A stretch of DNA of 64,000 bases from Shigella phage Sf18 (MF158044), one strand, 5' to 3'. Positions 1 through 30,013 are shown, counted from the stretch's first letter. Notes: generated from the letters alone by a model not told the origin. A program made the numbers and translations.

Positions 1-1
1 G

Positions 2-1678
2 CTCTACACATATCTATCTGACCTGAAGATTAATGCCCCTACACCGTATCTGAATGGTCTGAGAGCTACAAAATCTGGCTACGCTTCATGCTGCCTAATT
101 AAAGCAAATGATACTGCTGAATCTCTTGGCATTGCTACAAAAGTAGCTTATGACATGACAACTAAGCAAGCAGGTATTGGTATGCTGATGGAGACCAGAA
201 CAATTGGTGATGGAATCCGACAAAACACTATTGAGCATATGGGAAAACTCCCTTATTATAAGCTTGTACGTGCTGCTGTAGAGGCTAATAAGCAGAAGAG
301 TCGTGGTGGTTCAGCTAATAACTTCTTCACTGCATTAGACCCACAGATTGAGGATTTGCTACGCTTGAAGCACCCTACAACGGTTCCTGCAAAGCGTATT
401 AATGAAATGGATTACTCATTTGGTGCAAATGATTACTTCTGGCAATGTGTACAGTACGATACAGATTGGTTGCTATTCTCTTACAAAGATGCACCAAGAC
501 TGTATGATATGTTCTACACAGCAAGTGCTGATGAATTTGCTATGGCAGTAGGTCACGCAGTTCATACAGGTGTTAAACATAAACGTGTAAAGGCTCGTGA
601 AGTTGCCAAGTTGTTTATCCAGCAACGTTATGCTACAGGGCGTATTTACCCGTTCTTTACTAACAACGCAAACTATCATACACCTTTCAAAGAACCTTTG
701 AAAATGTCAAACCTGTGTATGGAGATTGTCTTACCAGTTCACGGTTTTGAGGATGAAAGAGACCTGTATAGCTACACAGCCAAGAAAGAAGACGGTGAAG
801 TTGCTCTTTGCTTCTTAGCTAGTTTGGTTGCAGGGAGAATCACAGAAGATGAATACGCTGACGTTGCTTATTATGCTCTTGCAATGGTTGACTCCGTTAT
901 TGACCTTATGGATTATCCGTATCCGTCAATGCGTAACCATGTTCAGAAACGTCGTTCTGTTGGTATTGGTCTTACTAATGTGGCTCATTACCTTGCGAAG
1001 AACTATGTGAATTACTCATCAAGGGCTGGTAAAACTAAACTTCATGAGTTGGCTGAGATGCACTCTTACTTCTTGCATGAAGCATCTTTAAGACTCGCAA
1101 AAGAGCGTGGTGTACCAGAGTACATGCAGTTTACTAAGTACCCTGACGGTTGGGTTCCACCAAAGACTGCTAACAAGAAAATTGATGAAAAGCACGATGC
1201 AAAACTTCGTTATGATTGGGATGACCTGTCACATCGAATTAAAGAAAATGGTGGTATTCGTAACTCTGTGTTAGAGGCTTACATGCCTAATGAGAGTTCT
1301 TCTCTGGCAACTAACACGACAAACGGCCTGTACCCTATTCGTGACTTCATCTTAACTAAGAAGTCTGCAACTGGTAACGTTCTGTTTATTGTACCTGACT
1401 ATGAAGAGTTGAAGTATGTATATGAAATTGCTTGGGATATTGACACATTTGATATGATTGATTGCTATGCAATTGTTCAAAAATTCACTGGTCAAGCTAT
1501 CTCTTCAGATTTCTATGTTGACTACTCGAAGTCTAAGAAGGTATCATTAGAGCAAGCTTTGAAGTACATGATTTATGCAAACCTTGTTGGTTTGAAAACT
1601 ATGTACTACCTTAACAGTCGTATCGGTGTTGGTAAATCAGCACTACAAGATGCCTACTGTGAGGGTTGCGGCGTTTAG
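2..1678 (+). CDS. nrdA: ribonucleotide reductase class I large subunit (5' end lies upstream of window)
   Basis: Frame open from window start; catalytic-site motif SNLCMEI; immediately followed by nrdB. Confidence 0.85.
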   Translation, partial: LYTYLSDLKINAPTPYLNGLRATKSGYASCCLIKANDTAESLGIATKVAYDMTTKQAGIGMLMETRTIGDGIRQNTIEHMGKLPYYKLVRAAVEANKQKSRGGSANNFFTALDPQIEDLLRLKHPTTVPAKRINEMDYSFGANDYFWQCVQYDTDWLLFSYKDAPRLYDMFYTASADEFAMAVGHAVHTGVKHKRVKAREVAKLFIQQRYATGRIYPFFTNNANYHTPFKEPLKMSNLCMEIVLPVHGFEDERDLYSYTAKKEDGEVALCFLASLVAGRITEDEYADVAYYALAMVDSVIDLMDYPYPSMRNHVQKRRSVGIGLTNVAHYLAKNYVNYSSRAGKTKLHELAEMHSYFLHEASLRLAKERGVPEYMQFTKYPDGWVPPKTANKKIDEKHDAKLRYDWDDLSHRIKENGGIRNSVLEAYMPNESSSLATNTTNGLYPIRDFILTKKSATGNVLFIVPDYEELKYVYEIAWDIDTFDMIDCYAIVQKFTGQAISSDFYVDYSKSKKVSLEQALKYMIYANLVGLKTMYYLNSRIGVGKSALQDAYCEGCGV

Positions 1679-3563: not shown

Positions 3564-5708
3564 ATGGTTAAAGTACAAATTATTAAGAAAGACGGTTCAC
3601 TGGAAAACCCAAATGTAAATAAAATCGTCGAAGCAGTTACCAAGTCAGCTAATAGAGTTGGCTACAAAGAGTTACCACTAGAAGTTATCCATGCTCTTGA
3701 ATCAGCCTTTATGAGACTGCTTGTCAGAGCAACTAATCAGAATGCTATGCTCATCTCTGTAGATGATGTTCACAGTATTGTGGAAGGAACTCTGGCAGAG
3801 GTAAACCATGAAATCTATGAGTCATATTCAACCTACAGAAACTATCGTAAAGAGGTTGCACAGAATTGGGATGAACTTTACCAGAAAACTAAAGACACAC
3901 TCTTCTTAGGTGACCGTGAGAATGCTAACTTTGATAGTAGCTTAATCTCTACAAAAGGTTCAATCATCCGTGGGTATCTGACAAAAGAAATCTTTAAGCA
4001 GTATCACTTGACACCAGAAGAAGCAAGTGCTATTGAAGATGGTTTCATTTATATCCATGACTTAAGAGATTTAATCTTCGGTGGTATTAACTGTTGCTTG
4101 TTTGACATTGGAAGCGTCTTGAAAGGTGGTTTTGAAATGTCCGGCATTGAATACTGCGAACCAAAGTCTGTACTTTCAGCTTTACAGGTTATTGGTGACG
4201 TTGTACTCTCAGCAACTGCACAGCAATTTGGTGGATTTACTATCCCAGAGATTGACAAGGTTCTTGTGCCATATGCTAAGAAGTCTTTTGAGTATCATCT
4301 GGAGAAAGCAAAGCAGTATAATATCACAGGGAGAGGTGGTGCATACCACTATGCTAAAGAGCAACTCCAGATTGAACTGACCCAAGGTTTCCAATCTCTG
4401 GAAATGAAGCTAAACACTGTCCCTTGCAGCCGTGGTGACTTTGCATTTACAACATTAACATTTGGTTTACTTGAACCAGATATGGCTAGTGAAGACAACC
4501 GATTGCAATTTATGATTGCGAAGACTATTCTTGATGTGAGAATGAATGGTCAAGGTAAGTCTAAGAAGCCTGTTGTATTCCCTAAACTGGTTTACATTTA
4601 TGATGAGACAAGACATATGCTAGACCCTTGGCAGGGAACTCTTTATGACAAAGCTATTGAGTGCTGTTCTAAAGCTATGTACCCAGACTTCTTAAGTGTT
4701 TCTGGTCATGGTTCTGTTGCAGAAGCTTTTGAGCGTTCAGGTGCAGTCATCTCTCCAATGGGTTGCAGAGCTTTCTTATCACCATATTATGATGAAGATG
4801 GTAAAGAGTTCTACACAGGGCGAGCAAACATTGGTGCAGTATCTCTTAATCTGCCAATGATTTACAAGTATTCTGAAGAGAATTGTTTAGACTTCTGGAC
4901 AGAACTTGACAAGTATCTTGAGATGATTAGAAGCTTCCATAAAAAACGTTATGAGATGATTGCTAATATGCCAGCAAGCTCTAACCCTCTAGCATTCACA
5001 CAAGGTGGTTTGTATAAAGGTCATAAGAAGCCAACTGACAAGATTGGTTGGGATACTGTGAAATCTTTTACAGCCTCTTTTGGTGTCACTGCATTGGATG
5101 AGTTAACAGTACTTGCACAAGGTAAAAGATTACATGAGTCAGACGGTGATATTGCAAGTAAGGTTTTAAACTACCTGAATGGCAAACTGGAGCAGTTTAA
5201 ACAGGAAGATGGTTTCTTGTATGCCCTCTATGGTACACCTGCTGAGAGCCTTTGTGGTACGCAATTGAAGCAGTTTAGAAACATGTTTGGAGTTGTTAAA
5301 GGTGTATCTGATAAAGAATACTTTACAAACAGCTTCCACATGAATGTTGGTGCAGATATTACACCATTTGAAAAGCAAGACTTAGAAGAACCTTTCTTCC
5401 ATGCTTGTAATGGTGGTCATATCCAGTACGTTCGTATTGCTAATCCAGAGAATCATAAAGCTATTAGGGCTTGTGTGACAAGAGGTATGGGTAAAGGTTT
5501 CTATCAAGGTGTTAACTTTGACTTGGCAATCTGTGAGAATTGTGGTCACCGTCCAAGTGCAGATGTTGAATTGTGTCCTAAGTGCAACTCACACGATATC
5601 TCTGTGATTAACCGTGTTTGTGGTTATCTTGGCTGGACTAAGATTAAAGGTACTTCCAGAATGAATGATGCAAAAATTGCTGAAATTCAGGATAGAAAAT
5701 CTATGTAA
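3564..5708 (+). CDS. nrdD: anaerobic ribonucleoside-triphosphate reductase (class III)
   Basis: ATG with AGGAG RBS (ORF-track start 3474 lies inside terminator); C-terminal glycyl-radical motif RVCGYLG and CxxC...CxxC zinc ribbon. Confidence 0.9.
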   Translation: MVKVQIIKKDGSLENPNVNKIVEAVTKSANRVGYKELPLEVIHALESAFMRLLVRATNQNAMLISVDDVHSIVEGTLAEVNHEIYESYSTYRNYRKEVAQNWDELYQKTKDTLFLGDRENANFDSSLISTKGSIIRGYLTKEIFKQYHLTPEEASAIEDGFIYIHDLRDLIFGGINCCLFDIGSVLKGGFEMSGIEYCEPKSVLSALQVIGDVVLSATAQQFGGFTIPEIDKVLVPYAKKSFEYHLEKAKQYNITGRGGAYHYAKEQLQIELTQGFQSLEMKLNTVPCSRGDFAFTTLTFGLLEPDMASEDNRLQFMIAKTILDVRMNGQGKSKKPVVFPKLVYIYDETRHMLDPWQGTLYDKAIECCSKAMYPDFLSVSGHGSVAEAFERSGAVISPMGCRAFLSPYYDEDGKEFYTGRANIGAVSLNLPMIYKYSEENCLDFWTELDKYLEMIRSFHKKRYEMIANMPASSNPLAFTQGGLYKGHKKPTDKIGWDTVKSFTASFGVTALDELTVLAQGKRLHESDGDIASKVLNYLNGKLEQFKQEDGFLYALYGTPAESLCGTQLKQFRNMFGVVKGVSDKEYFTNSFHMNVGADITPFEKQDLEEPFFHACNGGHIQYVRIANPENHKAIRACVTRGMGKGFYQGVNFDLAICENCGHRPSADVELCPKCNSHDISVINRVCGYLGWTKIKGTSRMNDAKIAEIQDRKSM

Positions 5709-27384: not shown

Positions 27385-27449
27385 TATTACTTTCAACGGG
27401 GAGGGAGACTTCCCCACTAACCTAAATTCCTAAACTGGAGAATCTGAAA

Positions 27450-27701
27450 ATGGCTACTATCCACGCAACTGTTAACAATTTTGGCTTCCATGTATTAGAT
27501 GTTAAATTTGATATGGTTGGAACTGGCGATGTTTTTGGCATGGTTGATATGTGTCTAAAAGCAACTATTCAGGACTACAATCAATCTGAGTGGTTCTGGA
27601 AAGAAGTAAAACAAGAAGTCTTAAAGGATGGCAAATCCTCTTACTATTGGGGTGATTCTCTTATCACGCTTTACTATGAAGTTGACGGCTTCAATAACTA
27701 A
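27450..27701 (+). CDS. hypothetical small protein (cassette gene)
   Basis: Type-B cassette upstream; followed by terminator. Confidence 0.5.
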   Translation: MATIHATVNNFGFHVLDVKFDMVGTGDVFGMVDMCLKATIQDYNQSEWFWKEVKQEVLKDGKSSYYWGDSLITLYYEVDGFNN

Positions 27702-27743
27702 CAAGTCGCCGCAACGGGGCAAATAGCCCCAGACACCTTTACA

Positions 27744-27767
27744 GCCCCTTAGATGGGGCTTTTTTAC
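27744..27767 (+). terminator. rho-independent terminator ending plus-strand small-gene island
   Basis: AGCCCC-ttagat-GGGGCT then TTTTTT. Confidence 0.6.
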
Positions 27768-27769
27768 GT

Positions 27770-29300
27770 CTTCCTAGAATCTTACCATTGATTCGATAGA
27801 ATCTATCCCATACATTTAGAATAATAACTCTATAGCTTACTCTATATCCTCTTATCAAATCAACTTAAATATAAGCCCATAACCCGAAAGGGAAGGGCAA
27901 TCCCTAAAACGCTCTATAACGCTCTATACGGGCTTATCATCTCATCTTAAGCAATCATATTAACCTGCTCTTAAAAGCCCTTTATAGAGCTTTCTAGAGC
28001 CTTAAAAGAATCTTATAAGGGTATAAGCTTTATTATCTCGTTAGTATCTTGTGAATGGTTAAACAGGGGCTTGATAATAGCTTTAAAGTATGTTATGGAG
28101 TCTTCAAAGTAACGTAAAAGAACCTTAAAAGTAACGTAAAAGTTAGCCCCCTTTACATTCTCTTAACAAAATCTTAACAAATGCTACATAGTTATGCTTG
28201 TTAGCCCCTTGTTAAATCCTTGTTAGAGGTATGTTAAGAGCTTGTTAGCCTCTTTGAAGTCCCTGTATAAGCCCCTAGAAAGCCCTATAAAGAGCTATAC
28301 AGGTAGTTGGGGTGTAGTTACTAGGGAGAACCTTAGAAGAGGCTATATAGAGCTATACAGAGCTTTTAAGAGGGCTTTATAGAGAATCACTAAGAAGGGA
28401 AGGGAACTATAGACCAAGAGATAGTGACCATGTTAATAGCTTGTTAAAAAGGTTTAGAACTTGTTAGCACCTTGTTAATTATCTTAACAAAATAACTCTT
28501 AAGATTTAACTATTTAGCAACTTATAAGCAACTTGTTAGACCCTTGTTAGTAGTGTTACAGACTGGTTAAGCTCTTGTTAGTTCTGTTAAGAGGCTGTTA
28601 AGAACTTTGAAGAGATGTTAAGAGCTTGAGAGAGTTGTTAAGAGATTGTTAATGATATTTTAAGATTTTGCAAAGGGGATGTTACAGGGCTGTTTAGGGC
28701 TACCAAGCAGATATACACCCTAAGTAGATATTTTTCAGATTCTCCAAAGACCCTAAAAAGTAACCTACCTAGTCTATTTTATAAAAATTTTATAATTCTG
28801 AATAACTATCTATACACTATCTTATATAAAACAGGAATTAACAGGCTTATAAGATACCTTGTTAGTACCGTGTTAGACCTTGTAGGATAAGCCTAAGAGG
28901 TTGATTCTTAAGAACAACCGAATCAACTAGAAGGGAATACCTGTTTAGTGTTATATAACAGTCTATATAGAGGCTTAGTAATACCTAGTGATTCTGCTAT
29001 ATAGGGTACTATCGTTTACCTAGAGATTAAGATGGCTATAGGGGCTTCTAAGGGGCTAGGAAGAGGTTAGGAAGGTGATTGTATAGGGTTGATTAATGGT
29101 AGGCTTAGAAGGCTTTATAGAGGGCTATATAGAGAGCACTATTTAGGGACTAAGAGGTTATATAGATACTATATAATACTATATAGAGATGATGCTTAGA
29201 GAGGGTGTTTAGAAGGGTATAGATATTTTATCACATATCATGGTGACCCAAGATGAACGGAGTGAATCCCAAATTTTATAAAAATTATAAATTTCGTAAA
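27770..29300. repeat. ORF-free region dense in short direct repeats (TGTTA(A/G) and TATA-N-AGAG families)
   Basis: No ORF of 60 aa or more on either strand; over 20 TGTTA(A/G) copies, many ~11 bp apart (28197-28248, 28563-28654); bounded by terminators. Confidence 0.7.
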
Positions 29301-29308
29301 TTTTACTC

Positions 29309-29333
29309 AATAAAAAGCCCCAATTAAGGGGCT
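29309..29333 (-). terminator. rho-independent terminator ending minus-strand operon
   Basis: On minus strand AGCCCC-ttaatt-GGGGCT then TTTTTATT. Confidence 0.55.
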
Positions 29334-29341
29334 GTATAGTT

Positions 29342-30013
29342 TTACATCACTTCACTAAGCATAGTTTGCAATGAAGTTTTAGAAGTCTGGAAGAAGTGTG
29401 TGAACCCATTATGACGTTCTCTTACCTGAATCATTATCTGGTCACCCTTAATCGGGTGTGAACTAATATGGTATTCATTCATGTTCAGTACAACACCCAA
29501 ACCATCTATAATGTGTCTGAGTATGTCATATTCAACAAATTCTTCTTTACCTGTGACCTTGATACAAACACCCTTGTTAGTTCTTTTAGGGTTTATATCT
29601 TCCATAACCAGCATTTGTTGTCCACCAAGAGAAATCATAGAGAACTCTTTACGGTTCTGCTGCTTAACATACATCTCGAGTTTCTTCAAAGTATCTTCAT
29701 AGAACGGGTAAGACTTCTTGACAAAGATACCTTCAAGTGGCTCTTTACCTGTTAGATTTCTACGATAATTCATCCGATGAATAAGACGATACAGGTCACT
29801 TTTCTCATCTTTGGTAAAGTGTCTGTCTACATCTTTAACACTAAATGTGATATAATTACTCTCAAGTTCAAACTTTTTCATCTCTATCAAATCCTTAAAG
29901 CATTTCTTAGTAATCGCTTCCCATTCTTCGGAGTTCTTTCTCTTCCTCTTCAGATGGGGAACCATATCTGCTAAGTTCTTCCAACTCTTCTTCAGTAGGT
30001 GTCCCATAATCAC
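29342..30013 (-). CDS. hypothetical protein
   Basis: 223 aa ORF, last gene of minus-strand operon; terminator downstream. Confidence 0.5.
   Translation of the reverse strand: MIMGHLLKKSWKNLADMVPHLKRKRKNSEEWEAITKKCFKDLIEMKKFELESNYITFSVKDVDRHFTKDEKSDLYRLIHRMNYRRNLTGKEPLEGIFVKKSYPFYEDTLKKLEMYVKQQNRKEFSMISLGGQQMLVMEDINPKRTNKGVCIKVTGKEEFVEYDILRHIIDGLGVVLNMNEYHISSHPIKGDQIMIQVRERHNGFTHFFQTSKTSLQTMLSEVM

Follow-up and report, generated by a model that had tools for sequence, protein, structure and literature searches.

A gene-free region of Shigella phage Sf18 as the probable genome terminus of a Felix O1-like virus, with helically phased repeats inside its direct terminal repeat

Shigella phage Sf18 (MF158044) is a Felix O1-like myovirus, belonging to the genus Mooglevirus of the Ounavirinae. 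The 64,000-nucleotide stretch of its genome analysed here (hereafter the window, with all positions counted from its first letter) contains a gene-free region of 1.6 kb that is very probably the genome terminus, including its direct terminal repeat (DTR), seen in the joined form of a concatemer or a circularised assembly. The identification is made because the region is homologous to the ends of relatives whose termini have been resolved by experiment or by computation. The predicted DTR is exact, covers approximately 559 bp (28146-28704), and is present in one copy because assembly collapses the two terminal copies; on the linear map predicted from this homology the left end is at 28146 and the right end at 28704. 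The repeat is filled with short phased motifs, or iterons, and the best overall explanation, which we hold with moderate confidence, is a DTR terminus equipped with an iteron array for recognition. An earlier note on this DNA, made from the sequence alone, had seen in the repeats a replication origin or a nucleoprotein assembly site. Its general nucleoprotein idea stands, the identity of the region as a genome terminus was missed, and specific support for an origin was not found.

Homology to phages with resolved ends

The region matches 254 phage records, all from the Ounavirinae, the best being that of Shigella phage Sf15 at 96.5% identity. Short terminal repeats have been inferred for Felix O1 itself in the literature, and several of its relatives have been mapped. 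These include UAB_Phi87, with a 608-bp DTR defined by Bal31 digestion and run-off sequencing (Bardina et al. 2016, PMC4837284), and Ro111lw (613 bp; PMC6454146) and Pr103Blw (581 bp; PMC8303462), both analysed with PhageTerm, a program which also yielded DTRs for D4 and for the Erwinia Kolesnikviruses. For another Mooglevirus, vB_CbrM_HP1 (OK539913), "direct repeats at both termini" are described and a repeat_region is annotated at 1..570.

The published UAB_Phi87 repeat, taken from Fig. S1 of the supplement (its GenBank record does not begin at the physical end), starts with AACATTTTCTTAACAA, ends with GTTAAGGGCTACCAA and corresponds to approximately 28154-28706 of the window. In the Ro111lw record the first 1.2 kb and the last 1.1 kb are non-coding, and both ends include an identical stretch of 613 bp that is homologous to 28146-28704. 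The records of HP1, D4 and Ro111lw all begin at the nucleotide which aligns with 28146 (GCCCCC); the right boundary in the end-resolved records is GGGCTACC, at window position 28704; and one or other of these boundaries also marks the start or the end of the records of EcSzw_1, SLAM_phiST56 and NBSal004. In an alignment of 12 phages drawn from Mooglevirus, Suspvirus and Felixounavirus, neither boundary (left, ..TAGCCCCCTT..; right, ..AGGGCTACCAAGCAGATATACA..) shows any variation. The window therefore resembles the Felixounavirus-type DTRs both in sequence homology to an experimentally determined repeat and in the fixed boundaries shared across end-resolved genomes.

Set beside the Felix O1-like DTRs (UAB_Phi87, Ro111lw, Pr103Blw and HP1), the window has homologous sequence in the same position between the same convergent gene blocks, with the left boundary reading GCCCCCTT(T/A)ACATT and the right boundary as given above. 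Its copy has one 11-nt unit fewer, 559 bp being the 570 bp of HP1 minus one such unit. A more distant relative, Erwinia phage vEam_PM_27, carries a repeat of approximately 418 bp at both ends, starting with GCCACTTTTACATT. Bases 1-8 of its record (PP079184.1) are TCCGATCT, which resembles the tail of an Illumina adapter and stands immediately ahead of that end; this apparent adapter residue in a public record incidentally points to a real physical end.

The open reading frames (ORFs) are in keeping with the claim of the earlier note that approximately 1.5 kb between convergent terminators holds no ORF of 60 aa or more. Between 27702 and 29341 none of that length occurs on either strand, and the only one of at least 40 aa is a 46-aa ORF with a TTG start (28242-28382). 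The gap is limited by the stop of an 83-aa gene on the + strand at 27701 and by the stop of a 223-aa gene on the - strand at 29342. The stem-loops with T runs lie on each side:

27737-27766, + strand: Rho-independent terminator, stem at 27743-27760 followed by a T run; conserved in the 12 phages; closes the rightward block of small genes.
29311-29339, - strand: Rho-independent terminator, stem at 29333-29316 followed by a T run; forms an inverted pair; kept in the 12-phage alignment; closes the leftward gene block.

The two terminators are convergent and face inward on the gene-free region. In linear virion DNA the + strand block would read outward to the right end and the - strand block outward to the left end, both terminating before the non-coding ends. 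No Pfam domain was found in the flanking genes, and the only PHROGs families to which they belong are of unknown function. Some relatives have small "hypothetical protein" coding sequences annotated within the terminus, including Michonne gp111 (4979-5179) and those of ESh19-22; on comparison they lack conservation and are likely to be spurious. In the records of finno and heid, the features named "repeat_region" proved to be only automatic calls of short tandem repeats.

Anatomy of the repeat and its flanks

The predicted DTR is built from the following parts, where retention refers to the conservation of motif cores described below:

28146-28704, unstranded: DTR, 559 bp, with the left physical end GCCCCCTTTACATT... 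and the right physical end ...GTTTAGGGCTACC.
28146-28182, - strand: left terminal module, GCCCCCTTTACATT followed by two TCTTAACAA iterons (TAACA at 28164 and 28175) pointing to the left end; retention 1.0.
28197-28248, + strand: iteron array A, five CTTGTTA(G/A)-type units at exact 11-bp spacing; relatives have one unit more or less.
28263-28385, unstranded: central block, made up of second-family CTATA-N-AGAG pairs spaced by 10 bp and in part palindromic.
28431-28489, + strand: iteron array B, TGTTA at 28431, 28442, 28462 and 28473, with an inverted TAACA at 28485; retention 0.73-1.0.
28534-28654, + strand: iteron array C, nine TGTTA(A/G) units (subtype TGTTAAGAG) and one TGTTAC, spaced by 9, 11, 20 or 22 bp.
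28655-28704, + strand: right terminal module, ATATTTTAAGATTTTGCAAAGGGG..CTGTTTAGGGCTACC; invariant; the inverted counterpart of the left module.

Two motif families account for these arrays. TGTTA occurs 23 times on the + strand and five times on the - strand between 27770 and 29300, so that the more than 20 TTGTTA(G/A)-type copies of the earlier note, mostly in one orientation and 10-11 bp apart, are borne out. The density of TTGTTA(A/G) is 10.5 per kb in the region versus 0.64 per kb elsewhere in the 64 kb (approximately 16-fold), and TGTTAAGAG is present in five copies versus one. For the second family the earlier note gave at least 12 copies, a figure which holds for the looser TATA-N-AG (16 on the + strand and 14 on the - strand, with many palindromic overlaps) but not for the strict TATA-N-AGAG; the latter has seven copies in the region versus two elsewhere in the window, a density approximately 150-fold higher. 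An unbiased analysis of k-mer enrichment placed CTTGTTA (42-fold) and CTATATA/TATAGAG (38- to 97-fold) at the top, with TTGTTAG and TGTTAAG also among the most enriched words, and families with a period of 10-11 bp were recovered independently by a repeat search and by Tandem Repeats Finder. Within the window both families are essentially restricted to the terminus region, and nearly all of the TGTTA iterons fall inside the DTR. Other motif clusters in the window (at 13.9, 26.2 and 27.47 kb) were, on reading, unrelated coding or promoter sequence.

The spacing of the iterons follows the helical repeat. Fourteen of the 18 gaps between adjacent TGTTA motifs within 28146-28704 equal 10.5n ± 1 bp, a value that 20,000 random placements did not reach even once. 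Globally, a period of 10.4 bp fits best (pairwise-distance R of 0.80 versus a null maximum of 0.55), which puts the iterons on one face of the helix. In an autocorrelation analysis that made no use of the motifs, the region ranked first for 10-11-bp periodicity among the 559-bp segments of the 64 kb (z = 10.3 versus all segments outside the region). The orientation is also biased, with 19 forward and three inverted TGTTA/TAACA motifs in the DTR (p = 9e-4).

A further property is the symmetry of the two ends. The first ~50 nt of the DTR, when reverse-complemented, match its final ~70 nt. This holds for three genera, represented by the window, Ro111lw and the Erwinia phage (P ≤ 0.0005); the match between the left and right modules of the window has P = 0.0005, and that of the Erwinia phage is identical at 20 of 21 positions. 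Since the ends of the DTR match as inverted repeats, each boundary bears the same iteron module pointing outward.

Comparison among relatives separates the motifs from the DNA between them. In the distant Felixounavirus rows of the alignment the TGTTA/TAACA cores are retained at 0.80 versus 0.37 for other 5-mers of the DTR (p = 5e-6), the second family being more weakly conserved (0.53 versus 0.36, p = 0.013). Between phages the arrays vary by whole 11-nt units and the helical phase is therefore preserved. The DTR of vEam_PM_27 has the same layout of TAACA followed by TGTTA at 11-bp steps, although only ~80 nt of it can be aligned, and its right-end flank has a different phased unit, TTCTAA. 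Array C is the only part of the DTR that can be aligned with those of the Erwinia Kolesnikviruses. The whole non-coding region is 73% identical to that of Felix O1, versus 51-65% for the flanking genes. The two checks suggested in the earlier note, periodicity against random controls and comparison with related phages, thus gave a significant result in the first case and, in the second, a conserved region whose iteron cores are retained above their spacers. Judged from these alignments, the DTR region holds putative cis-elements which are conserved, phased, symmetric and under purifying selection.

IMG/VR viral contigs were also scanned for three TGTTAR units at 11-bp spacing; among the matches listed, dense arrays were found in contigs of Ounavirinae size and in two others. 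As relatives of the array, contigs L112 and L041 were rejected, having different units and no similarity to the window. L112 (6700-6990) has inverted arrays of GTGTTAAT, one block on each side of an AT-rich centre, and looks origin-like, while L041 (13930-14200) contains a 37-bp tandem repeat.

Outside the DTR but inside the terminators lie two stretches of unique DNA:

27767-28145, unstranded: right-end unique non-coding DNA, 379 bp; outside the repeat in end-resolved records.
28705-29310, unstranded: left-end unique non-coding DNA, 606 bp; outside the repeat in end-resolved records.

The right-end flank contains CTCTATA pairs at 10-12-bp spacing (27828-27846 and 27912-27928), a hairpin block (GCCC-ATAA-CCC-GAAA-GGG-AA-GGGC, 27875-27898) that is identical in all 12 aligned phages, and 11-bp AAAGTAACGTA repeats (28106-28143) abutting the DTR. 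In the left-end flank an invariant AAGCAGATATACA adjoins the cut, and further along are a TTGTTAG/GTGTTAG pair (28858-28877) and arrays of CTATATAGAG (28960-29010 and 29104-29192). This flank also holds an AT-rich box, CTATTTTATAAAAATTT, which is invariant at 28776-28798, ~70 nt outside the right boundary of the DTR, and recurs ahead of the leftward terminator. The earlier note had located its copies at 28768 and 29273; the first in fact starts at approximately 28776-28777, and the second is where it was placed (29273-29295, 87% identical). The box could be an unwinding element, an UP-like element or a protein site. The GC skew changes from -0.14 in the right-end flank, where the + strand is C-rich, to about +0.20 to +0.21 in the G-rich left-end flank, flipping near the left boundary.

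The left-end flank of the window is further marked by a 33-nt hairpin insertion of its own (28895-28927, GTTGATTC..GAATCAAC); the window has a single copy of the small palindromic insertion unit. Among close relatives, palindromic units of 24-35 nt (GATTCGATAGAATCTATC, GGTAGATTCTACCGAATC and TTGGTATTGTTACCAA) come and go. They are located inside the loops of the terminators and just outside the DTR (window sites 27785-27808 and 28895-28927; alignment columns 50-75, 1090-1125, 1277-1300, 1505-1537 and 2015-2045), and they resemble miniature mobile insertions or scars left by repair.

A proposed packaging role of the arrays and its alternatives

The presumed cutting enzyme is encoded some distance to the right of the terminus:

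45436-47052, + strand: large terminase (TerL), with Terminase_6N and Terminase_6C (T4-type) domains; phrog_979.

TerL is expected to cut at the boundaries of the DTR. The TerL proteins of Felix O1-like and Citrobacter phages fall in one cluster of DTR phages (Bardina et al. 2016, PMC4837284). Directly upstream of the gene, in the usual position of the small terminase (TerS), is a conserved 68-aa ORF (45223-45429, + strand). It belongs to phrog_4397 (unknown function), has no sequence match in Pfam or PDB, and is named "hypothetical" in every record. Its AlphaFold 2 model (predicted local distance difference test score of 86) consists of one long and one short helix and gave no Foldseek match.

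We suggest, tentatively and with somewhat less than even confidence, that the iterons serve in packaging recognition, as an array for the machinery which cuts at both boundaries of the repeat. The TGTTA(A/G) iterons would form a cooperative protein-binding array, and the inverted boundary modules would let a single recognition complex, made up of terminase and a candidate DNA-recognition partner, dock at either boundary. This complex would cut or nick at the invariant sites, between TTA and GCCCCC on the left and between GGGCTACC and AAGCAG on the right. Copying through the repeat would follow, as in the T7-type DTR phages, leaving each packaged genome with a full repeat. The CTATA-N-AGAG pairs of the flanks and of the DTR centre would probably be an accessory binding array for the same nucleoprotein complex. 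A more specific proposal, which we regard as speculative and rather unlikely, is that the ~22 phased iterons and the inverted boundary modules are a docking platform for an unrecognised DNA-recognition subunit of Ounavirinae packaging, either a non-canonical small terminase or an end-binding protein, which would set both DTR cuts by a symmetric two-boundary mechanism; the array might also prime replication of the ends.

Two kinds of known packaging site invite comparison. In T7 and T3 the concatemer junction comprises a terminal repeat of 160-230 bp, arrays of short repeats beside it, packaging signals and end-proximal replication promoters. The window shares with this arrangement a DTR that is short and exact, a junction that is non-coding and rich in repeats, predicted fixed and sequence-specific cuts at both boundaries, and a repeat that would be duplicated during packaging. 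It differs in having no sequence similarity, in being from a myovirus with a T4-type TerL, and in a DTR which is three to four times longer and filled with ~22 phased iterons; moreover, the early promoters of T7 point inward from the left end, whereas the end genes of the window point outward. The pac and cos sites (the R sites of lambda cosB, the pacL and pacR boxes of SPP1, and the hexamer repeats of P1 pac) have three to seven repeats in 100-200 bp and a known TerS. Their repeats are short, phased and set beside the cut, and presumably serve to wrap the DNA about an oligomer of the small terminase. The window has this pac/cos-type feature, clustered phased short repeats adjoining the predicted cleavage sites, but in the form of ~22 repeats spread through 560 bp, duplicated at the two genome ends, and without a recognisable TerS.

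Several points weigh against the explanation of the region as a DTR terminus with a recognition array. Between the boundaries found by experiment (UAB_Phi87) and those given by PhageTerm there is a discrepancy of 8 nt at the left end and of 2 nt at the right. In Sf18 the DTR is positioned by homology only, and the window contains a single copy, the collapsed form that assemblers commonly give to a DTR (PMC10438801). For phages Moogle and Mijalis, the genome announcements took the similarity of TerL as a sign of headful packaging, without end mapping. No small terminase is named in any of the Ounavirinae records or pharokka annotations examined, the iterons have neither a known nor a predicted binding protein, and a packaging role for them is argued from position, phasing, symmetry and analogy. 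Finally, ~1 kb of non-coding DNA outside the DTR is equally conserved and is unexplained by end cutting alone.

The strongest alternative, although an improbable one, is that the iteron arrays act as a replication origin, either solely or as a second function; a phage initiator would bind the repeats, and the AT-rich box at 28776-28798 would then melt. Phased direct repeats are the hallmark of iteron-type origins such as lambda ori, P1 oriR and those of plasmids, and the window likewise has multiple short direct repeats with helical spacing. The AT-rich block described above, invariant in sequence and present twice, lies close by and could correspond to an unwinding element. The region is predicted to be non-transcribed and is strongly conserved, and in T7 replication-associated promoters adjoin the terminal repeat. 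Against an origin, no DnaA boxes (TTWTNCACA) occur between 27700 and 29341, the sole match to the consensus for integration host factor sits in the window-specific insertion and is not conserved, and the flanking genes encode neither an initiator-like (Rep) nor a DNA-binding domain. Genes converge on the region, whereas those at origins usually diverge. Furthermore, the arrays coincide with the terminal repeat, ending exactly within it, and the inverted terminal modules track the cut sites, neither of which an origin requires.

Slightly less probable again is that the arrays bind a protein for some other task at the ends: protection from RecBCD, control of ejection (compare the injection-stop region of T5), ordering of the DNA that is spooled first or last in the capsid, or recombination between DTRs to form concatemers. 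The arrays would be present at both physical ends, their one-face phasing implies wrapping or bending of the DNA, and such a task might account for the large conserved flanks which cutting alone leaves unexplained; in T5-like phages, repeat-rich ORF-free regions near the terminal repeats have been linked to ejection control. There is no candidate protein for this role, however, and the inverted symmetry of the boundaries fits boundary recognition better than a polar ejection signal.

It is most improbable that slippage or unequal annealing within the DTR generated the repeats as neutral products with no sequence-specific function. Copy number does vary between relatives by whole 11-nt units, which is typical of slippage, but the motif cores are conserved far above their spacers, the arrays persist across genera without alignable similarity, and the region is more conserved than the adjoining genes.

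Least probable of all is a structured non-coding RNA, which the earlier note had allowed for and which we could not support: the region is long, conserved and ORF-free, and two of three segments have folding z-scores of -2.2 to -2.75, but these scores are alike on both strands, as expected from inverted repeats in DNA, and the region (27400-29600) has no match in Rfam 15 at E ≤ 1. Covariation in the 12 phages is negligible (RNAalifold terms of +0.33 and -2.04 kcal/mol, with two-sided changes in 1 of 53 and 10 of 112 pairs), and most of the RNAalifold "pairs" are invariant iterons pairing with each other. Sigma-70-like sites are at the level of chance (seven versus 6.5 expected), a count on which a promoter array was rejected as well; terminators face inward from both sides; and in virion DNA the region would be split between the genome ends.

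Significance

Away from the terminus, a 471-aa DUF7788/DUF2828 protein is encoded at 38493-39908 (+ strand), directly upstream of a cluster of 25 tRNA genes (40075-45003). The arrangement matches that of Bas63, in which the Ro60-like gp130 is found in a tRNA and possible Y-RNA context (PhageMaP preprint). For the intergenic region of Bas63 that is homologous to the terminus (MZ501086, ~70.5-72.1 kb), that preprint gives no data.

A genome terminus with a DTR is already known for this group of phages, and the internal architecture, consisting of phased iterons and inverted modules, seems to be undescribed. In the open-access literature searched we found no description of phased iterons, inverted boundary modules or conserved flanks, the repeat being given only as a length or a sequence. 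The identification of the terminus explains a 1.6-kb gene desert which most GenBank records of the group leave unannotated or fill with spurious small ORFs. The headful packaging inferred for Moogle and Mijalis conflicts with the evidence for DTRs, and some announcements wrongly state this mode.

Since the Felix O1-like phages are a large and therapeutically used group, correct ends matter for genome rebooting, for engineering and for settling the packaging mode; Felix O1 itself can be rebooted in the cell-free TXTL system. The phased iterons and symmetric modules are testable cis-elements which could help in finding the recognition subunit of the terminase and in building packaging-competent vectors. 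Should the docking-platform proposal be true, it would mean a new recognition logic for short-DTR myoviruses and would offer a handle for finding the missing TerS.

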